Assembly: GCF_039541115.1 (NCBI RefSeq)
Contig: NZ_BAABFP010000007.1
Span: forward strand, 606,584-626,583
DNA length: 20,000 nt
Direction of reading: 5' to 3'
DNA from: Angustibacter luteus
GTDB lineage: Bacteria; Actinomycetota; Actinomycetes; Actinomycetales; Angustibacteraceae
Shown piece after piece: positions 1 to 9,495 of this stretch. The position numbers and the translations under genes are program-made. The notes below the pieces were generated by a model. The model was given only the letters and a program-made list of their open reading frames with translations, did not search any database and was not told where the DNA came from. Within the stretch, counting starts at the first letter, position 1. Each line of letters starts with the position of its first letter.

Positions 1-788
1 CGGGGCTGTCCGACGTGTTCGCCCGGTACGCCTGCGACCACCTGTTCAGCCAGGTCGACGAGCTCGGCACCCGGGACGGCTCGAACCTGACGGTGGACGG
101 CTACGAGTTCGCGCCGTCGTTCTCGATCTGGACGACGATCGAGGAGTGCCTGAACCCGCCCGTGGTGTGGGAGGCCGACCGCGGCTGGTTCACCACGGCG
201 CCGTTCAGCGAGCCCGAGGTCTTCGACTTCCCGGACGGCATCGGTCCCGTGGAGTGCGTGAACGTGGAGCACGAGGAGGTGCTGCTGATGCCGCGCTGGC
301 TCGACGCGAAGCGAGTCACGTTCAAGTACGGGCTGGGCGAGGAGTTCATCGACGTCCTGCGCACGCTGCACAAGCTGGGACTCGACTCGACCGAGCCCGT
401 GCGGGTCGGTGGGGTGCAGGTCAGCCCGCGGGACGTCGTCGCCGCGTGCCTGCCGGACCCGGCGGGGCTGGGGGACCGGATGCACGGCAAGACCTGCGCC
501 GGGCTGTGGGTCACGGGCACCGGGACGGACGGGCAGCCGCGCGAGGTGTACCTCTACCACGTCGTCGACAACGACTGGTCGATGCAGGAGTACGGCGCGC
601 AGTGCGTGGTGTGGCAGACCGCGGTCAACCCCGTGGTCGCGCTCGAGCTGCTCGCGACGGGCGCGTGGTCCGGGTCGGGTGTGCTCGGTCCCGAGGCCTT
701 CGACGCCGTGCCGTTCCTGGACCTGCTCCGCGACGGCTACGGGTCACCGTGGGGGCTGCGCGAGCAGACCCCGGGCCCAGCCAGCTAG
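1..788 (+). CDS. Saccharopine dehydrogenase family / carboxy(nor)spermidine dehydrogenase-like oxidoreductase, 5'-truncated by the window edge
   Basis: Frame is open from base 3 (GLSDVFARYA...). Recognisable C-terminal motifs FSIWTTIEECLNP, VEHEEV, TFKYGL and GVLGPEAFD. TAG stop overlaps the gabT stop (CTAG 785-788). Confidence 0.8.
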   Translation, partial: GLSDVFARYACDHLFSQVDELGTRDGSNLTVDGYEFAPSFSIWTTIEECLNPPVVWEADRGWFTTAPFSEPEVFDFPDGIGPVECVNVEHEEVLLMPRWLDAKRVTFKYGLGEEFIDVLRTLHKLGLDSTEPVRVGGVQVSPRDVVAACLPDPAGLGDRMHGKTCAGLWVTGTGTDGQPREVYLYHVVDNDWSMQEYGAQCVVWQTAVNPVVALELLATGAWSGSGVLGPEAFDAVPFLDLLRDGYGSPWGLREQTPGPAS

Positions 789-2146
789 TCGCCGGCGACC
801 GCGGACTCGAGGACGTCGAGCGCCTCGGCCAGCAGGGCGTCGTCGATCACCAGCGGGGGCAGGAAGCGCAGCACGTTGCCGAAGGTGCCGCAGGTGAGCG
901 TCAGCACACCCTGCTGGTGGCAGGCAGCGCTGATCCGGGCGGCCTCGGCCGGGTCGGGGTCGGTGCTGCCGGGCACGACCAGCTCGATGGCGACCATCGC
1001 GCCGCGGCCCCGGACGTCGCCGATCTGCGCGTGCTGACCGGCCAGTGCGGAGAGCCGGTCCAGCATCGTCCGACCGATGGCGGCGGCACGGCCCGCCAGG
1101 TCGTCCTCCTCGAGCGACTCCAGGGCGCCCAGCGCCGCGGCGCAGGCGACCGGGTTGCCGCCGTAGGTGCCACCGAGGCCGCCGGCGTGCACCGCGTCCA
1201 TCAGCTCGGCGCGGCCGGTGACCGCAGCGAGCGGCAGGCCCCCCGCGATGCCCTTGGCGGTCGTGATCAGGTCCGGCACCACGCCCTCGTCGTCGCATGC
1301 GAACAGCGTGCCGGTCCGGCCGAACCCGGTCTGGATCTCGTCGGCGACGAAGACGATGCCGTTCTCGGTGCACCACTGCGCGATGGCCGGCAGGAAGCCC
1401 GGCGCCGGGACGACGAAGCCGCCCTCGCCCTGGATCGGCTCGATCACGACGGCGGCGACCTCGTCGGCGCCCACCTGCTTGTCGATGACCGAGATCGCGC
1501 GACGCGCGGCCTCCGCGCCGCTGATCGGCACCGGCTCGCGGAACGGGTAGCTCATCGGGGCCCGGTAGACCTCGCCCGCGAACGGGCCGAAGCCGTGCTT
1601 GTACGGCATGGACTTCGCCGTCATGGCCATCGTGAGGTTGGTGCGGCCGTGGTAGGCGTGGTCGAAGACGACCACGGCGTCGCGGCCGGTGGCCACCCGG
1701 GCGATCTTGACCGCGTTCTCCACCGCCTCGGCGCCGGAGTTGAACAGCGCCGACTTCTTCGCGTGGTCGCCGGGGGTGAGCCGGGCCAGCGCCTCGCAGA
1801 CCGCGACGTAGCCCTCGTACGGGGTGACCATGAAGCAGGTGTGGGTGAACTGCTGCACCTGCTCGGTGACCCGGGCGACGACCCGCGGGTTGGCGTTGCC
1901 CACGTTGACCACGGCGATGCCCGAGCCCAGGTCGATCAGCGAGTTGCCGTCGACGTCCTGCAGCACGCCACCACCGGCGCGGGCGATGTAGACCGGCAGG
2001 GTGGTCCCGACGCCGTCGGCGACTGCCGCCTGCTTGCGCGCGTGCAGCGCACGCGAGCGCGGCCCGGGGATCTCGGTCAGCAGCTCGCGGCGCTGAGGAA
2101 CTCCGTCGGCGACGGCGGGGGACGTGGACTCGCGCAGGTCGGTCAT
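785..2146 (-). CDS. gabT: 4-aminobutyrate aminotransferase (class III PLP-dependent)
   Basis: Motifs NSGAEAVENA, AYHGRT, IEPIQGEGG, DEIQTGFGRTG, TAKGIAGG (PLP lysine) and GGTYGGNP. Start taken at ATG 2146 (MTDLRES...), 453 aa. The ORF-track extension to 3904 is the antisense shadow of gabD. Confidence 0.92.
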   Translation of the reverse strand: MTDLRESTSPAVADGVPQRRELLTEIPGPRSRALHARKQAAVADGVGTTLPVYIARAGGGVLQDVDGNSLIDLGSGIAVVNVGNANPRVVARVTEQVQQFTHTCFMVTPYEGYVAVCEALARLTPGDHAKKSALFNSGAEAVENAVKIARVATGRDAVVVFDHAYHGRTNLTMAMTAKSMPYKHGFGPFAGEVYRAPMSYPFREPVPISGAEAARRAISVIDKQVGADEVAAVVIEPIQGEGGFVVPAPGFLPAIAQWCTENGIVFVADEIQTGFGRTGTLFACDDEGVVPDLITTAKGIAGGLPLAAVTGRAELMDAVHAGGLGGTYGGNPVACAAALGALESLEEDDLAGRAAAIGRTMLDRLSALAGQHAQIGDVRGRGAMVAIELVVPGSTDPDPAEAARISAACHQQGVLTLTCGTFGNVLRFLPPLVIDDALLAEALDVLESAVAGD

Positions 2147-2293
2147 GGCTCGCAGACTAGCCACGAGGCCGACCGGCCCGCACCGCCAGAGTGCGGCCCA
2201 CGGGCCCGGACGGCTGACAGTGTGACGCCCGACCCACCCGTGCGCTGGACTAGCGTCGAGCCGCGACCACCCGACCACCCGAAGGAGCCCGCG
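2147..2293. promoter_or_regulatory. Divergent gabT/gabD promoter region
   Basis: Minus-strand TAGTCT (2154-2159) lies 7 nt before the gabT ATG (leaderless geometry). Plus-strand TAGCGT (2251-2256) lies upstream of the gabD RBS. Confidence 0.5.
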
Positions 2294-3757
2294 GTGACCC
2301 AGCAGGACGAGCGACGCGTCGTCGAGGCCGTACCCCAGGGCCTGTTCATCGGCGGTCAGTGGCGGCCGGCGTCCGACGGCGCCGAGCTGAAGGTGCTCGA
2401 CCCCTCCACCGAAGAGGTGCTGACCACCGTCGCCGACGCCTCGGTGGCCGACGGCCGCGAGGCGCTGGACGCTGCGGTTGCCGCGCAGGCGGGGTGGGCC
2501 GCCACGCCGCCGCGCGACCGCGGCGAGATCCTGCGCGCGGCCTACGAGAAGGTCACCGAGCGCGCGGAGGACCTCGCGCTGCTGATGACGCTCGAGATGG
2601 GCAAGCCGCTGAAGGAGGCGCTGGGCGAGATCACCTACGGCGCCGAGTTCTTCCGGTGGTTCTCCGAGGAGGCCGTGCGCATCTCCGGTCGCTGGTCGAC
2701 GGCCCCGAACGGCGCCACCCGGCTGCTCACCATGAAGCAGCCCGTGGGGCCGTGCCTGATGATCACGCCCTGGAACTTCCCGCTCGCGATGGGCACCCGC
2801 AAGATCGGCCCCGCCATCGCGGCCGGCTGCACGATGGTGGTCAAGCCGGCGTCCCAGACCCCGCTGACCATGTACGCGCTCGCCCAGATCCTCACCGAGT
2901 GCGGGCTGCCGGACGGCGTCCTCAACGTGGTGACGACGTCCCACACCGGCGACGTGATGGAGCCGCTGATCCGCGACCCCCGGCTGCGCAAGCTGACCTT
3001 CACCGGGTCCACGCCGGTCGGCCGCCGGCTGGTCGAGCAGTCGGCCGAGGGCCTGCTGCGGGTGTCGATGGAGCTCGGTGGGAACGCCCCGTTCATCGTC
3101 TTCGGCGACGCCGACCTGGACCGCGCCGTGGACGGCGCCATGCTCGCCAAGATGCGCAACATCGGCGAGGCCTGCACCGCGGCGAACCGGTTCATCGTGC
3201 ACGAGTCGGTCTCGGCCGAGTTCTCCGCCCGGCTGGCCGAGCGGATGGGCGCGCTCACCGTCGGTCGGGGGACCGAGGACGGCGTGGACGTCGGTCCGCT
3301 GATCGACGGCACCCAGCGGGACAAGGTGGCCGAGCTCGTCCAGGACGCCGTCGACCTCGGGGGCAAGGTCCTCACCGGTGGGGGAGCACTGGACGGCAAG
3401 GGCTTCTACTTCGCGCCCACCGTGCTGGGCGACGTCCCGACCCAGGCGCGGGTCTTCGGCGAGGAGATCTTCGGCCCGGTCGCGCCGATCACCACCTTCG
3501 CCACGGACGACGAGGCGCTGGCGCTGGCCAACGACACCGAGTACGGGCTGATCGCCTACGCCTTCACCCGCGACCTGGCCCGAGCCCTCGCCGTCGCCGA
3601 GGGCCTGGAGACCGGCATGGTCGGGATCAACGCGGGGGTGGTGTCCAACCCGGCGGCGCCGTTCGGCGGCGTCAAGGCCAGCGGGTTCGGTCGCGAGGGC
3701 GGCGCCGAGGGCATCGAGGAGTACCTCGAGACCAAGTACGTCGGCATCGCCCCCTGA
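2294..3757 (+). CDS. gabD: NAD(P)-dependent succinate-semialdehyde dehydrogenase
   Basis: Aldehyde dehydrogenase motifs ITPWNFP, FTGST, MELGGNAP, GEAC (catalytic Cys), EEIFGPV and PFGGVKASG. AAGGAG RBS at 2282-2287 before GTG 2294. Divergent from gabT. Confidence 0.92.
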   Translation: MTQQDERRVVEAVPQGLFIGGQWRPASDGAELKVLDPSTEEVLTTVADASVADGREALDAAVAAQAGWAATPPRDRGEILRAAYEKVTERAEDLALLMTLEMGKPLKEALGEITYGAEFFRWFSEEAVRISGRWSTAPNGATRLLTMKQPVGPCLMITPWNFPLAMGTRKIGPAIAAGCTMVVKPASQTPLTMYALAQILTECGLPDGVLNVVTTSHTGDVMEPLIRDPRLRKLTFTGSTPVGRRLVEQSAEGLLRVSMELGGNAPFIVFGDADLDRAVDGAMLAKMRNIGEACTAANRFIVHESVSAEFSARLAERMGALTVGRGTEDGVDVGPLIDGTQRDKVAELVQDAVDLGGKVLTGGGALDGKGFYFAPTVLGDVPTQARVFGEEIFGPVAPITTFATDDEALALANDTEYGLIAYAFTRDLARALAVAEGLETGMVGINAGVVSNPAAPFGGVKASGFGREGGAEGIEEYLETKYVGIAP

Positions 3758-3891: not shown

Positions 3892-4011
3892 GATGCTCAC
3901 CCACAGGTAGTGAGTTTCGGTAACTTCCTGCGACGTGACGCTGCGTGCGGCTTCAATCGCTCACAGCGATACAGCCCGCCCGGGGCTGCCCCGCATCGCT
4001 GAGGAGTGCCG

Positions 4012-4116
4012 ATGAAGAAGAAGTCCCCTGTCAGCGCGGTCGTTCGCCTCAGTGCGGGCGTGCTCCCCGTGATCACCCTGGTGTCGGTGCTCGGCGCCGG
4101 CTCCAAGTGGTGGTGA
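4012..4116 (+). CDS. 34-aa small peptide, signal-peptide-like precursor (MKKKSPVSAVVRLSAGVLPVITLVSVLGAGSKWW)
   Basis: GAGGAG RBS at 4001-4006, 5 nt before the ATG. Basic N-terminus, hydrophobic core and GSKWW tail. Absent from the ORF track because of its size. Confidence 0.8.
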   Translation: MKKKSPVSAVVRLSAGVLPVITLVSVLGAGSKWW

Positions 4117-4175
4117 TCGCCGTGCTGACGCGCAGCGAAGACACGCAGTACCTGCCCGGTTACAAGTGGGTCTAG
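4113..4175 (+). CDS. Putative 20-aa peptide (MIAVLTRSEDTQYLPGYKWV)
   Basis: GTG start overlaps the upstream TGA (GTGA). Ends in the same G-x-K-W-x-stop pattern as the upstream peptide. Third codon positions are mostly G/C. Confidence 0.45.
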   Translation: MIAVLTRSEDTQYLPGYKWV

Positions 4176-4197
4176 GGCCTCGCGCCCGCTGACACCC

Positions 4198-6363
4198 ATG
4201 AAGCGACCCTCGCCCCTCGCGCTCTACGTCGCCTGCGTCGCCCTGCTGGGCGCGCTCGTGGCGGCGTGGAGCCTGTGGGGTGTCGGTCTCGCGGAGCTGG
4301 CCCGTACCGCCCCGAACCCGGTGTGGTTCCTGGCGGTCGGGCTGGTTCTGGGCGAGCTCATGCCGATCCCCGTGGCCCGCGGGGACGACGAGACGTCCAA
4401 CGTCACGATGTCGACCACCTTCGCCGTGGCGCTGGTGACCACCGGACCCTTCGCCCTGCTCCTGCTGGTGCACACCATGGCCGTCGCGATCGACGACCTG
4501 CGCACCCGCCGGAGCGTGGCCAAGGTGCTGTTCAACTTCGGCCAGTACGCCGTGTCGTTGGCCGCCGCCCGCGCGGCGTTCTGCGTCATCACCGGCACGA
4601 GCTTCCACGCCGGCTACACCCCGCTGGACGCCAGCGAGCTGCCCGCGGCCCTCGTCGCGGGCTTCACGTTCATCATGCTCAACAACGGTCTCGTCGCCGT
4701 CGTCGTCGCCCTGGCCACCCGCCAGCCGGTGCTGGCGATGCTGCGCGAGGACCTCGCATTCAAGCTCGAGACGTCCAGCGTGCTGCTCGGCCTGGCGCCG
4801 GTCGCCGCCGTGCTCGCCGAGATGAGCGGCTGGCTCCTACCCCTGCTCGCGCTGCCTGTCCTGGCGGTCCGCCGCTCCGCGGCGCTGGCCGTGGCCCGGC
4901 AGTCCCAGGCCCTGCGCGACGCCCTGACCGGACTGGGCAACCGCGAGCTCTTCTTCGGCCGCGCCGAGCGCATGCTCGCCGCCTACGAGCGCACCGAGAG
5001 TCCCTTCGCGGTGCTGATGATCGACCTCGACCACTTCAAGGACATCAACGACACGCTCGGCCACCAGGTCGGTGACCGGGTCATCCAGACGGTCGGTGCC
5101 CGCATCGCGCACGCCGGCGGCCCCGACGGCTGCGTCGCCCGGCTCGGTGGCGACGAGTTCGCCATCACCATCCCCGGCGTGGACGTCGCGCAGGCGAGCG
5201 CCGCCGCCGAGACGCTGCTGTCCGACATCGTCCGTCCGCTGCACGTCGGCGGCATCCGGATGGTCATCCACGCCAGCGTCGGCATCGCCATGGCCGAGCC
5301 CGGCGTCGACGTCACCACGCTGATGCAGCGGGCGGACATCGCCCTCTACGAGGCCAAGCGGGACCGCGCCCGGTGGTGCCTGTACGACGTCCAGTCCTCG
5401 ACGGCGACCCCCGAGCGCCTCGGGCTGCTCGCCGACCTGCGCGACGCGATCGACCTGCGGCAGATCTCCGTGCACTTCCAGCCGCAGGTCGCGCTCAACG
5501 GCGGCCGCGTCTTCGGCGCCGAGGCGCTCGCGCGCTGGGACCACCCCGAGCGCGGCTCGGTCGCGCCCGAGGAGTTCATCGCCCTGGCCGAGCACGCCGG
5601 GCTCATCGACCAGGTGACCGACATCGTCCTCGAGGAGTCGCTGGACGCGCTGGCCAGCTGGTCCCAGATGGGCATCGCCGCCCGCGTCTCGGTGAACCTG
5701 TCGGCCCGGCAGCTGGCCGACCTGGGGCTGCCCGAGCGGTTGCGTGACGCGTTGCGCCGGCACGGTGTCTCGCCGGGCCAGCTGACCGCGGAGGTGACCG
5801 AGGGCAGCATCATGGGCGACCCCCGGCGGGCCGCGCAGGTGCTGCACGAGCTCCGCCAGGAGGGCATCCGGATCGCCGTCGACGACTTCGGCACCGGCTA
5901 CTCCTCGCTGGCCTACCTGCAGCGCCTGGACCTCGACGAGCTGAAGATCGACCGCAGCTTCGTGCAGTCGATGGGCGCCGTCTCGCGGGACGACGTGCTC
6001 GTCCGCTCGATCATCGAGCTCGCGCACAACCTCGGCCTGTCGGTGGTCGCCGAGGGCGTCGAGACCCCGGGGCAGGTCGAACGACTGCGCGAGCTGCAGT
6101 GCGACGCCGCCCAGGGCTACCACCTCGGTCGGCCGATGGACCGCGAGATGATGACCGCCTGGCTGCGTCGCGACACCATGCTCGAGCCCCTGCGGCTGCC
6201 CGAGGAGGACCACAGCGAGGACACCCTGCACGGTCTCGTGCAGGGGCTGGCCCACCTCGAGCCGTTCGGCCCGGCCGAGGCCGTGCCCGCCGTCCCGGCG
6301 ACCGGTCGGTCCGGCAAGCCGACCCACCTGCGCGCCGTCCGGTCCGGACAGGGAACGGCGTGA
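4198..6363 (+). CDS. Membrane-anchored diguanylate cyclase/phosphodiesterase (multi-TM N-terminal domain + GGDEF + EAL)
   Basis: About 230 aa hydrophobic N-terminus. GGDEF motifs DALTGLGNR, DLDHFKDINDTLGH and RLGGDEF (GGDEF at 5146-5160). EAL at 5521-5529, followed by DDFGTGYSS, LKIDRSF, VAEGVE and QGY. Confidence 0.95.
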   Translation: MKRPSPLALYVACVALLGALVAAWSLWGVGLAELARTAPNPVWFLAVGLVLGELMPIPVARGDDETSNVTMSTTFAVALVTTGPFALLLLVHTMAVAIDDLRTRRSVAKVLFNFGQYAVSLAAARAAFCVITGTSFHAGYTPLDASELPAALVAGFTFIMLNNGLVAVVVALATRQPVLAMLREDLAFKLETSSVLLGLAPVAAVLAEMSGWLLPLLALPVLAVRRSAALAVARQSQALRDALTGLGNRELFFGRAERMLAAYERTESPFAVLMIDLDHFKDINDTLGHQVGDRVIQTVGARIAHAGGPDGCVARLGGDEFAITIPGVDVAQASAAAETLLSDIVRPLHVGGIRMVIHASVGIAMAEPGVDVTTLMQRADIALYEAKRDRARWCLYDVQSSTATPERLGLLADLRDAIDLRQISVHFQPQVALNGGRVFGAEALARWDHPERGSVAPEEFIALAEHAGLIDQVTDIVLEESLDALASWSQMGIAARVSVNLSARQLADLGLPERLRDALRRHGVSPGQLTAEVTEGSIMGDPRRAAQVLHELRQEGIRIAVDDFGTGYSSLAYLQRLDLDELKIDRSFVQSMGAVSRDDVLVRSIIELAHNLGLSVVAEGVETPGQVERLRELQCDAAQGYHLGRPMDREMMTAWLRRDTMLEPLRLPEEDHSEDTLHGLVQGLAHLEPFGPAEAVPAVPATGRSGKPTHLRAVRSGQGTA

Positions 6364-6367
6364 TCCG

Positions 6368-6910
6368 GTGCTGGTCGCCGCGCTCGTAGCGCTCGCCGTC
6401 CTGACCGTCCCGCTCAGCGGTGGTCGGTGGTCCGCGCTGGGCTCGCTCCGGTTGCGACACAGCTGGTTGCTGTGGATGGCGCTGCTCGGTCAGGTGCTGG
6501 CCCTCGAGGGGCCCGACCTGGGTGGTTGGGCCGCTCTGCTGCACGTCGGCACGTACCTGCTGGCGGGCGCCTTCGTCGTCCTCAACCGCGCCATCCCGGG
6601 CCTCTGGCTGATCGCGGCCGGCGGCTTCCTCAACGGCATCACCATCGCGCTGAACGACGGGACGCTGCCGGCGTCGGCGCACGCGCTGCGCGCCGCCGGG
6701 CTGCCGGCCGACCACCACCAGTTCGTGAACTCGGGCGTGGTCGGCGGAGCGCACCTGCCGTGGCTCGGCGACGTGTTCGCCTGGCCACAGCCGCTGCCGC
6801 TGGCCAACGTGTTCAGCGTGGGCGACGTCCTGCTGGTCGTGGGGGCGTTCTGGGCGATCCACCGGCTGGCCCGGCGCAGCCCGGCCGAGCCGCAGGTCGC
6901 CCTCGCGTGA
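6368..6910 (+). CDS. DUF5317-like integral membrane protein
   Basis: 180 aa, multi-TM. The pattern N...G..LN...I..N.G.(M/L)P...WLGD.F...NVFSVGD matches my recollection of DUF5317. Starts 4 nt after the GGDEF-EAL stop. Confidence 0.75.
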   Translation: MLVAALVALAVLTVPLSGGRWSALGSLRLRHSWLLWMALLGQVLALEGPDLGGWAALLHVGTYLLAGAFVVLNRAIPGLWLIAAGGFLNGITIALNDGTLPASAHALRAAGLPADHHQFVNSGVVGGAHLPWLGDVFAWPQPLPLANVFSVGDVLLVVGAFWAIHRLARRSPAEPQVALA

Positions 6911-6922
6911 CACGCTGACCGC

Positions 6923-8080
6923 ATGAGTCGCAGCGTGGTCCTGCTCGGGTCGACCGGGTCCGTCGGCGAGCAGGCCGTCGACGTCATCACCCGCAACCCC
7001 GACCGCTTCACCGTCACCGCCCTGGCCGCGGCCGGGTCCGACGTCCGGCTGCTCGCGGAGCAGGCGGCCCGGCTGCAGGTCCAGCAGGTCGCGGTCGCCC
7101 GCGAGGACCGCGCGCCGGAGCTGCGCGCCGCCCTGGAGGCGGCCGGTGCCGGCGCCGAGGTGCTGGCCGGGCCGGACGCCGCCGAGCAGCTGGCCGCCCG
7201 CGGTGACGACCTGGTGCTGAACGCGATGACCGGCTCCATCGGGCTGCGTCCCACGTTGGCGGCGCTGGCCGCCGGCAGCACGCTCGCGCTGGCCAACAAG
7301 GAGTCGCTGATCGTCGGCGGCCCGCTGGTCAAGGCCGCCGCCGCTCCCGGCCAGATCGTGCCGGTGGACTCCGAGCACTCCGCGCTCGCGCAGTGCCTAC
7401 GCGGCGGTCGGGAGTCCGAGGTGGCCCGCCTGGTGCTGACGGCCAGCGGCGGGCCCTTCCGTGGCCGGCCGCGGCACGAGCTGGACGACGTCACCCCGGC
7501 CCAGGCGCTGGCCCACCCCACCTGGGACATGGGCCGGATGGTCACCACCAACTCGGCGACGCTGGTGAACAAGGGCCTGGAGGTCATCGAGGCGCACCTG
7601 CTCTTCGACCTTCCGTTCGAGCGCATCGCCGTCGTGGTGCACCCGCAGTCGATCGTGCACTCGATGGTCGAGTTCACCGACGGCTCGACGCTCGCCCAGT
7701 GCTCGCCGCCGGACATGCGGCTGCCCATCGCGCTCGGCCTGGGCTGGCCGGACCGGGTGCCCGGCGCGGCCGCGGCCTGCGACTGGAGCACCGCGAGCAC
7801 CTGGGAGTTCCTGCCGCTGGACGACGAGGCGTTCCCCGCCGTCGCCCTGGCCCGCCGGGTGGGGTCGGCGGGGTCGACGTACCCGGCGGTGTACAACGCG
7901 GCCAACGAGGAGTGCGTGGACGCCTTCCACGACGGCCGGATCCGGTTCACCGCGATCGTCGACACGGTGACGCAGGTGGTCGACGAGCACGAGCCGCCCG
8001 CCGGCCCCCTCACCCTGACGGACGTGCTCGAGGCCGAACGGTGGGCGCGGGCTCGAGCGCATGAGAAACTGGGAGTATGA
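6923..8080 (+). CDS. dxr: 1-deoxy-D-xylulose-5-phosphate reductoisomerase
   Basis: Motifs [46 protein letters not shown] and [10 protein letters not shown]. Confidence 0.97.
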
Positions 8081-9495
8081 CCGTCCTGCTCTACGCCCTC
8101 GGCGTGCTGCTGTTCGCCGTGGGTCTCGCGGCGTCCATCGCGCTGCACGAGATCGGGCACCTCGTCCCCGCCAAGAAGTTCGGCGTCAAGGTCACCCAGT
8201 ACATGGTGGGCTTCGGCCCGACGGCCTGGTCGCGCCGGCGCGGTGAGACCGAGTACGGCGTCAAGTGGGTCCCGCTGGGCGGCTACATCCGGATGATCGG
8301 CATGTTCCCGCCGAAGCCCGGACAGGCGCCGGAGGAGGCGCTGCGCGCCACGTCCACCGGGCGGGTCGGGATGATGCTGGACCAGGCGGTGCAGTCCCGC
8401 GCCACCCGTCGTGGCACGGCGACCGGTGAGCGTCGGGTGGGCATGGCCGAGGCCGCCCGCCAGCAGTCGATGGACGAGATCCAGCCCGGCGACGAGGCCC
8501 GCGTCTTCTACAAGCTCCCCGTGCACCAGAAGATCATCGTGATGCTCGGCGGTCCCACGATGAACCTGCTGATCGGCACCGTCCTGCTGGCGGGCGTCTA
8601 CATGGCCTACGGCCTGCCGGTCGACAAGCCCGGAGCGCAGGTCGCCGCGGTCAACGAGTGCGTCGTCAGCGCGGACGCGGCCCAGACCCAGACCACCTGC
8701 GCCGCAACCGATCCGAAGACCCCCGCGTACGAGGCCGGGCTACGCCCCGGGGACACCATCGTGGCCGTCGCCGGCGAGGACGTGCAGAACAGCGCGGCCG
8801 TCGGGCGGCTGATCCGGCCGCGGGTCGGCCAGACCGTGCCCGTCGTCGTCGTCCGGGACGGCGAGCGACTGACGCTGCAGATCACCCCGATCGAGAACAC
8901 CGTCACCAAGGTGGACGGCGACGGCCAGCCGGTGCTCGGCGCCGACGGAAAGGCCGAGACCGTGCGCGCCGGCTTCCTCGGCGTGAGCACCCAGACCCCC
9001 TCGGTGGTCGAGCGGCAGTCGATCACGCAGGTCCCCGGCGAGGTCGGGTCGGCGCTGTCGGCCACCGCCGCCGTCGTGGTGCGGATCCCGCAGAAGATGG
9101 TCGGCGTGGTGCAGACCATGAGCTCGGGCGAGCGGGACCCCAACGGCCCGATCAGCGTCGTCGGCGTCGGCCGGATCGCCGGCGAGGTGGCCAGCGCGGA
9201 CGGCGCGTGGTCAGCCAAGCTCGCCACGATGCTCGGCGTCCTCGCCTCGCTGAACTTCGCGCTGTTCGTGTTCAACCTCATCCCGCTGCTGCCGCTGGAC
9301 GGCGGACACGTGGCGGGGGCGATCTGGGAGGGTCTGCGACGCACGTGGGCGCGGCTGCGGCACCGGCCGGACCCCGGCCCCGTGGACGTCGCGCGCCTGC
9401 TGCCCATCGCCTACGGCGTCGGGACCGTGCTGATCGTGATGTCCGTGATCCTGATCTACGCCGACATCGTCAATCCCATCAAGCTGCTCGGCTGA
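8077..9495 (+). CDS. rseP: M50 family site-2 zinc metalloprotease with PDZ domain (RseP/Rip1)
   Basis: HEIGH (HExxH) and [12 protein letters not shown] motifs, PDZ-like [15 protein letters not shown] overlap with dxr and canonical dxr-rip1-ispG position. Confidence 0.92.

Follow-up and report, generated by a model that had tools for sequence, protein, structure and literature searches.

The Agr cassette encodes a peptide precursor (AgrD), a membrane peptidase that uses Cys and His (AgrB) and a polytopic sensor kinase (AgrC). Small membrane proteins of the MgrB-PhoQ type tune sensor kinases, and the GxGD aspartyl proteases include presenilin, signal peptide peptidase (SPP) and prepilin peptidase. 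We analyzed a locus that resembles each of these systems in part. It lies in a stretch of 20,000 nucleotides from Angustibacter luteus (contig NZ_BAABFP010000007.1, positions 606,584 to 626,583), called the window below, and it encodes a membrane protein of the DUF5317 family, a membrane sensor enzyme with a MASE9-like domain and a micropeptide. DUF5317 is a common family with no assigned function. A sequence-only reading of the window had noted motifs like those of signal peptidase II (LspA, peptidase family A8) in its DUF5317 protein and had proposed a divergent membrane aspartic peptidase that cleaves a neighbouring precursor. LspA has four transmembrane (TM) helices and a beta-cradle, with Asp118 and Asp136 as catalytic residues, and the conserved block of the Staphylococcus aureus enzyme comprises Asp21, Lys25, Asn52, Gly54, Asn106, Asp109 and Arg110 (available text of PMC6952399). 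The MASE9 domain (PF20972) was defined by Galperin and Chou, who, in the available text of their preprint, propose ligand binding within the membrane and list HD-GYP and GGDEF-EAL outputs (bioRxiv 10.1101/2021.11.05.467447).

The window resembles Agr in that a tiny precursor gene, a polytopic protein with few invariant polar residues and a polytopic sensor are encoded together. It differs from Agr in that the polytopic protein has no Pfam match except DUF5317, its pair of acidic residues is Asp/Asp, enzymes of cyclic diguanylate (c-di-GMP) metabolism are among the outputs, and the conserved part of the peptide is the extreme C-terminus. As in MgrB-PhoQ, a single-span peptide of about 30 residues is encoded beside a sensor and presumably acts on it, but systems of that type are not known to include a further conserved polytopic protein bearing an acidic dyad, and their peptides are unrelated to those seen here. 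Like the GxGD families (A22/A24), DUF5317 has two essential-looking Asp residues, and its S-[VI]-G-D sequence at a helix start resembles GxGD. The DUF5317 motif reads S-V-G-D, however, and its other Asp, D135, is modelled on a loop strand and not in a helix. No GxGD family matched the protein in Pfam at E<=0.1, and none was listed in the fold searches. The features of the locus, in window coordinates, are as follows.

4001-4006, plus strand: Shine-Dalgarno-like GAGGAG, read from the sequence, 5 nucleotides ahead of the micropeptide ATG
4012-4116, plus strand: KW micropeptide gene, 34 residues, with a basic N-terminus, a hydrophobic span and a C-terminal LGAGSKWW
4122-4175, plus strand: tentative second mini-open reading frame (mini-ORF), 17 residues from a GTG at 4122, ending in PGYKWV; a GxKWx tail, no hydrophobic span
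4198-6363, plus strand: membrane sensor enzyme, 721 residues; MASE9-like domain at about 1-235, GGDEF at 238-390, EAL at 413-646
6368-6910, plus strand: DUF5317 gene, GTG start, 180 codons, five predicted TM helices
6770-6772, plus strand: codon of D135 in the LGDVF motif (WLGDVF, residues 132-137), invariant in our alignments
6824-6826, plus strand: codon of D153 in the SVGD motif (NVFSVGDVLL, residues 147-156), invariant in our alignments

One or two genes for KW micropeptides of about 30 residues, a gene for a MASE9-type sensor and a DUF5317 gene form a conserved membrane signalling cassette. We searched with the window proteins by tblastn around the best 80 of 598 confirmed DUF5317 relatives, on contigs from one genome per species. 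A homologue of the sensor was found beside DUF5317 in 74 of the 80 loci, upstream on the same strand in 57 and divergent in 17; six loci showed none. The N-terminal membrane domain of the sensor alone was recovered in 67/80 loci. A regular expression for the peptide tail picked out 55 cases in these loci and the window, all of them adjoining a sensor gene, and a profile built from these cases (the KW profile) gave 86 matches at E<=1e-3. The matches fall in 68/80 loci, 18 of which hold two or more. In 81/86 cases the match shares the strand of the sensor gene and precedes it, at a median gap of 106 nucleotides (range 39-489). At least six of the 12 loci with no match end before the region in question, and three show weaker matches in the right place. 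The window micropeptide, which ends 81 nucleotides ahead of the sensor gene, scored E 3e-10 among the 15,282 open reading frame (ORF) tails of the 80 loci and the window. Across the 66,250 ORF tails of the source genome it was the sole match (E 1.3e-9; next best 0.25).

By these sequence comparisons, the predicted micropeptide at 4012-4116 is a real, conserved and unannotated gene family. The motif over 87 micropeptides is L-V-A-x-[VL]-G-A-[GP]-x-K-W, followed by 0-5 residues after the Trp. Ala at -3 is present in all 87, Gly at -4 in 78, Gly or Pro at -2 in 51 and 32, Lys in 85 and Trp in 81. The net charge of the N-terminus is positive in 83/87, and the hydrophobic core contains at most one polar or charged residue. 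Six KW micropeptides that we scanned matched no Pfam or NCBIfam family, and the linkage exposes a micropeptide family that is unnamed in both collections. The Cys-less, lipobox-like precursor of the sequence-only reading is this micropeptide, which belongs to a family found at 68/80 loci and has no Cys at the lipobox position. As judged from sequence, the link between micropeptide and DUF5317 is the strongest new support for the functional idea of that reading.

The second mini-ORF (4122-4175) is less certain. In L001 and L002, the two loci closest to the window, the tail and its DNA are preserved amid diverging flanks; in many other loci, two complete micropeptide genes stand in tandem instead. 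The mini-ORF could represent either a second copy that has decayed or the tail in free form.

We also examined 201 sampled genomes of Actinomycetota, seven of them unpublished. DUF5317 is present in 77/201 (70/194 when the unpublished genomes are left out) and occurs in Bacillota and in Thermus and Thermotoga control genomes as well. The KW peptide was detected in 19/201 genomes, all 19 among the 77 with DUF5317 (17/194 without the unpublished genomes). The KW profile, which is short and insensitive, found none among the 124 genomes that lack DUF5317. A MASE9-like domain (our profile of the sensor membrane domain, E<=1e-5) is encoded in 115/201 genomes (108/194). It is present in 69/77 genomes with DUF5317 (62/70 without the unpublished ones) versus 46/124 without DUF5317, counts that come from related and so not phylogenetically independent genomes.

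The adjacent sensor has an N-terminal domain of the same kind as the published MASE9 proteins. In the window the Pfam E-values are 5.9e-76 for EAL, 2.6e-41 for GGDEF and 7.2e-5 for MASE9; the MASE9 match, at 23.2 bits, falls just below the cut-off of 24.3, and homologues in related loci reach 28.9-49.9 bits. We scanned 14 divergent partners and found eight GGDEF(-EAL) proteins and six HisKA/HATPase kinases, with MASE9 above the cut-off in five of the six kinases (28.9-41.2 bits). On a plasmid of Natranaerobius thermophilus (Bacillota), a small ORF is followed by a MASE9-HD-GYP gene and then DUF5317, and a Euzebya plasmid carries a KW peptide, a GGDEF-EAL gene and a DUF5317-EAL fusion. In both records the small ORF ahead of the sensor gene has the build of the micropeptide. 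Because GGDEF-EAL, kinase and HD-GYP partners are all seen, DUF5317 follows the MASE9-type membrane domain regardless of the output domain.

Both outputs published for MASE9 occur beside DUF5317, whereas the histidine-kinase outputs found here are not named in the available text of Galperin and Chou. In the main text of that preprint, as available, the terms DUF5317, PF17248 and 'neighbor' are absent and the neighbours of Thermotoga maritima TM1467 are not discussed (bioRxiv 10.1101/2021.11.05.467447). The same text names no signal for MASE9 sensors, and the linkage offers two candidate partners. The source genome encodes four MASE9-like proteins, one DUF5317 and one KW peptide, the latter two at the same locus. 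Three further MASE9-like genes (for example on contig C2 near 214 kb) have no matching DUF5317 or KW micropeptide; of the sensor paralogues in this genome, only one is therefore served by the accessory pair. DUF5317 is not itself a MASE9 domain, as the two profiles align in hhalign with a score of 12.5 (P 0.52). A complex prediction for the MASE9 domain with DUF5317 scored 0.01 against a mark of 0.32, a value that speaks neither for nor against a complex.

The DUF5317 gene starts 4 nucleotides past the TGA stop (6361-6363) of the 721-codon GGDEF-EAL gene. Its product matches PF17248 with E 5.3e-25 and 88.6 bits (cut-off 25) over residues 27-164, which correspond to positions 2-150 of the 151 in the profile. 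Pfam gave no other match of note, NCBIfam has no model for the family, and an Rfam scan of the window returned nothing. Exhaustive searching with HMMER yielded 2037 cluster representatives (E<=0.001), and a word-indexed search found 1257 proteins, with PF17248 in all 120 of those listed. Most members, the window's included, are standalone proteins of 170-250 residues. A search of the ESM Atlas with DUF5317 returned DUF5317 clusters only. Searching the sequences of solved structures gave 0 matches with the protein and only chance matches (E=5) with the profile. A full-text literature search for DUF5317 or PF17248 found no paper. At the level of sequence, the family is without detectable kinship to any characterised family.

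The sequence-only reading had drawn attention to the motifs GGFLN, WLGDVF and NVFSVGDVLL and to two Asp residues 18 positions apart ahead of the last TM helix, and had suggested their conservation as a check. We located all three motifs as described: GGFLN spans residues 85-89, with the N89 codon (aac) at 6632-6634, and D135 and D153 have the reported spacing, D153 standing two residues into the helix at 151-168. Among 69 actinobacterial relatives with 39-72% identity, the invariant residues are Q42, G85, N89, N96, G98, P101, N121, G134, D135, S150, G152 and D153. We also prepared a cross-phylum alignment of 20 rows from Actinomycetota and Bacillota (20-57% identity to the query), in which the Bacillota were added by way of the Natranaerobius homologue. 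There the invariant residues are G19, N73, G85, N89, I93, N96, P101, L133, D135, S150, G152, D153 and G159. Both Asp residues are thus conserved throughout the sampled Actinomycetota and Bacillota members. Since N89, D135 and D153 are invariant in both the 69-row and the 20-row alignment, we regard the observation as beyond chance. The invariant polar cluster of the family consists of N73, N89, N96, D135, S150 and D153.

An AlphaFold2 model on the 69-row alignment reached a predicted local distance difference test score (pLDDT) of 93.9 and a predicted template modelling score (pTM) of 0.86. Its helices cover residues 2-12, 33-47, 53-72, 79-95 and 151-168. A conserved 55-residue segment (96-150) leads into TM5 and is modelled as a short helix and a small hairpin whose strands span 135-139 and 147-150. 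The first of these strands begins with D135, and the last helix has D153 near its start. Within the 69 sequences, Lys and Arg number 2.2-2.4 per 10 residues in loops 18-32 and 73-78 and the C-terminal tail, versus 0.44-0.49 in loops 48-53 and 96-150. Read by the positive-inside rule, this distribution places the N-terminus outside and the C-terminus inside, and loop 96-150 with both Asp residues is inferred to face outward in the predicted fold. The C-terminal half (residues 74-180), folded alone on an 82-row alignment, gave a pLDDT of 91.8.

We compared DUF5317 directly to LspA. An alignment of 27 actinobacterial LspA domains, from which we left out three sequences with long open frames (L105, L107 and L108) and a sequence from an unpublished genome (L111), gave the consensus LGGALGNLxDR...VVDFIDFxxWPVFNxAD and so reproduced the LspA motifs quoted in the sequence-only reading. 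Its invariant columns D8, K12, N39, G41, F44, N91 and R95 match the conserved residues of S. aureus LspA in the available text of PMC6952399. The two families have a layout in common, in which an Asp dyad lies near the predicted outer surface and the second Asp starts the last helix. In DUF5317, the two Asp residues, 18 positions apart, flank that helix, and a GG motif closes the preceding one. The profile of LspA (PF01252) did not match the window DUF5317 at E<=0.1. An hhalign comparison of the DUF5317 profile with the LspA of the source genome returned a probability of 0.3%. Against the LspA alignment, our main DUF5317 profile reached 4.8% with a score of 22.6, pairing FAxPxxxPLANVFSvGD with FIDFxxWPVFNvAD and so placing D153 on the LspA dyad. 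The cross-phylum profile reached 1.2% with a score of 20.8 and paired both Asp residues as well as GGAMP with GGALG. The pairings are those that the sequence-only reading had pointed to. None of 110 column-shuffled LspA profiles scored as high as 22.6 (mean 13.1, maximum 21.8), a null that destroys helix-like runs. Reversed LspA profiles, which cannot be homologous, scored 22.1 and 22.5 with the same two DUF5317 profiles. Because the reversed profiles score equally, we rejected the hhalign likeness as evidence. The sequence likeness of DUF5317 to LspA is at the chance level for two glycine- and aliphatic-rich membrane segments.

Among solved structures, LspA is represented by the solved chains 6RYO/6RYP, 5DIR/6FMS and 9EMZ. 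Foldseek found nothing with the folded C-terminal half (74-180). In a fold search with that half, 6ryp_A, which is S. aureus LspA and whose residues 89-163 contain H3-H4 with the catalytic Asp118 and Asp136, ranked 20th, with the highest sequence identity in the list but with a Z score tied with unrelated hairpins (4.4-3.6 over ranks 1-50). On these models the 6RYP match appears to be a local resemblance of layout at the noise level, and gives no evidence of membership. The DUF5317 model comprises five helices, with an outer loop of 55 residues, in contrast to the four helices and beta-cradle of LspA. The LspA residues D21, K25, N52, G54, N106 and R110 have no counterpart in DUF5317, and the invariant columns of our LspA alignment have no aligned invariant partner there. 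The putative substrates also differ: LspA acts on a lipobox with a diacylglyceryl-Cys, and the 87 partner peptides have no Cys at that position (G in 51, P in 32, S in 2, A in 1 and V in 1). Canonical LspA is encoded in 40/41 sampled Actinomycetota genomes and in the source genome itself (GGALGNLTDR, VVDF and GNVAD; 101.3 bits for PF01252). Given the silent Pfam profile, the score of the reversed control, the helix count and the missing LspA residues, we rejected membership of DUF5317 in A8. That it is nonetheless a true divergent LspA processing lipoproteins strikes us as extremely improbable.

The other part of the sequence-only proposal, a peptidase that acts on a neighbouring precursor, fared better, as the gene linkage (68/80 loci for the micropeptide and 74/80 for the sensor) partly supports the functional idea. 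Our preferred reading, to which we give a probability of roughly 40%, is that DUF5317 acts on the micropeptide at the outer face of the membrane, with cleavage as the probable mode, and thereby provides input to the MASE9 c-di-GMP sensor. The micropeptide would insert with its N-terminus in and its C-terminus out, as suggested by its charge, which would put the GA[GP]xKW tail at the outer leaflet on the same side as the Asp pair of DUF5317. DUF5317 would bind this tail, and the Asp pair would hydrolyse the micropeptide within or beside the helix-breaking GA[GP] motif. It would thus act like an interface aspartyl peptidase of the signal-peptidase-II type, outside family A8. The product, either a short xKW(x) tail or the membrane remnant, may serve the MASE9 domain as its input, received within the membrane or at its outer face, and would thereby set c-di-GMP synthesis and breakdown. 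Some lineages carry DUF5317 fused to an MFS_3 exporter.

More broadly, DUF5317 might found a new family of aspartyl peptidases that act at the membrane interface, either convergent with LspA or related to it only very remotely, and might mature a Cys-less, signal-peptide-like micropeptide into the long-sought MASE9 input. A self-made peptide signal would then reach c-di-GMP, histidine kinase or HD-GYP outputs in Actinomycetota and Bacillota and probably in Thermus and Thermotoga. We advance this wider proposal only tentatively and hold it to be somewhat doubtful. A catalytic Asp pair would mean a new family of membrane peptidases and a new path by which a peptide reaches c-di-GMP. With a non-catalytic pair, the trio would still be a first handle on how MASE9 sensors are fed.

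Several points weigh against cleavage by DUF5317. Pro lies within the presumed cleavage motif of 32/87 micropeptides and is disfavoured by many peptidases, and the released product would be just 2-8 residues long. At five loci from one actinobacterial family (L085-L089), a KW peptide is paired with a MASE9 kinase and no DUF5317 gene lies next to them, and because of such pairs the micropeptide may belong primarily to the sensor. The fusions of DUF5317 to EAL and TPR domains look more like sensor anchors than enzymes. The co-occurrence counts are in addition phylogenetically dependent, and the short peptide profile is low in sensitivity.

Some of these observations fit a different role, in which DUF5317 is a non-catalytic co-receptor or scaffold of the MASE9 sensor. 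Its Asp/Asn/Ser cluster would bind a cation, a ligand or the Lys-Trp tail, and the peptide would stay intact as a single-pass subunit, much as in systems of the MgrB-PhoQ type. Gene linkage favours this model as much as it favours peptide cleavage. The peptide-kinase pairs at L085-L089 agree with it, as does the occurrence of DUF5317 as a membrane module at the N-terminus of an EAL protein and a TPR protein. K and W residues that close a hydrophobic span are typical interface anchors, and the lack of a significant similarity to LspA is also in keeping with a non-enzymatic function. On the other side, two Asp, three Asn and one Ser are invariant at 20-25% identity across two phyla, as is more usual for catalytic or tightly coordinating residues than for packing. 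The G-A-[GP] that invariably precedes K-W breaks helices, and motifs of this sort are seen in the substrates of membrane proteases. We consider the co-receptor model possible, with the odds against it.

The fusion architectures bear on a further alternative. Among 30 long family representatives, 20 are DUF5317-MFS fusions with DUF5317 first, and the ESM Atlas contains one such cluster. An MFS sequence also lies directly downstream of the DUF5317 match in 5/80 loci. The predicted inside location of the DUF5317 C-terminus fits an MFS domain, which begins inside, and a peptidase-exporter fusion would parallel the bacteriocin ABC exporters that contain a peptidase. The same fusions could mean that DUF5317 is a transport or ion module, an accessory or gate of a transporter whose Asp/Asn cluster handles protons or cations, with only an indirect link to the micropeptide; ion binding is common for acidic residues that occur in pairs in membrane proteins. 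We judge this unlikely, as most members stand alone at 170-250 residues, the fold has five helices and one surface polar cluster with no obvious pore, and the sensor linkage (74/80) is far more constant than the MFS linkage (5/80). Rarer DUF5317 forms carry TPR or HEAT repeats. The Euzebya pacifica plasmid (L084, NZ_CP031166) encodes an 846-residue protein at 3956-6496 with an N-terminal DUF5317, about 400 unassigned residues and an EAL domain. A GGDEF-EAL-DUF5317 read-through (P0269) is a single sequence on a short contig, and we did not use it as evidence of fusion.

The near-invariant tail of the micropeptide, with K in 85/87 and W in 81/87 close to the C-terminus, raises one more alternative by analogy. 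The pheromone ComX is prenylated by ComQ, and its sensor is the polytopic kinase ComP. DUF5317 might similarly be a non-proteolytic modifier that lipidates or prenylates the invariant Trp or Lys. The acidic/amide cluster could bind Mg2+-diphosphate, and a polytopic sensor is part of the cassette. Pfam and fold searches, however, showed no similarity to prenyl or acyl transferases, and the cluster is predicted to face outward, away from the cytoplasmic prenyl diphosphates. Such a modifier seems decidedly unlikely to us.

A number of loci and neighbouring genes depart from the trio. Four of the five loci with a peptide-kinase pair (L085-L088) have, beside the pair, a gene for a serine hydroxymethyltransferase that carries a long extension at its N-terminus. 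The ORF downstream of the kinase, scanned at L085 only, encodes an ABC ATPase. The neighbours at L089 differ and include ferritin and Peptidase_M15_4. At L054 and L073, a micropeptide lies directly ahead of DUF5317 and no sensor was detected; the C-terminal 550 residues of the 720-residue DUF5317 fusion at L054 match no MASE9. On the Natranaerobius thermophilus plasmid (L083, NZ_CP144220), the MASE9-HD-GYP, DUF5317 and aldehyde ferredoxin oxidoreductase genes are each split into pieces, the first two by frameshifts. An intact DUF5317 of 187 residues (P0286) is known from Natranaerobius thermophilus proteins, and the splits are probably sequencing frameshifts.

Downstream of DUF5317, the window contains dxr, rseP and ispG, each of which recurs in only 4/80 loci. 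The rseP gene, two genes downstream of DUF5317 between dxr and ispG (8077-9495, plus strand), codes for an RseP-type site-2 protease (Peptidase_M50 and PDZ), and relatives of this type process peptide pheromones in firmicutes. Given the recurrence of 4/80 for each gene, we rejected both an isoprenoid link through dxr and ispG and a role for rseP as the micropeptide protease; the neighbourhood looks like coincidental housekeeping synteny. A neighbour scan covered 53 loci, as the GC-frame gene caller missed DUF5317 in 27/80, and the linkage counts given above rest on tblastn. In the scan, no family occurred more than three times among the downstream neighbours (44/52 called ORFs scanned, eight of at most 114 residues dropped). 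At the upstream end of the window, an ORF of about 1200 codons (146-3757, plus strand) matches aldehyde dehydrogenase over its last 460 residues, and its first 740 or so residues have no Pfam match at E<=1e-4. This N-terminal part may be a PutA-like proline dehydrogenase or may reflect an over-extended start codon.

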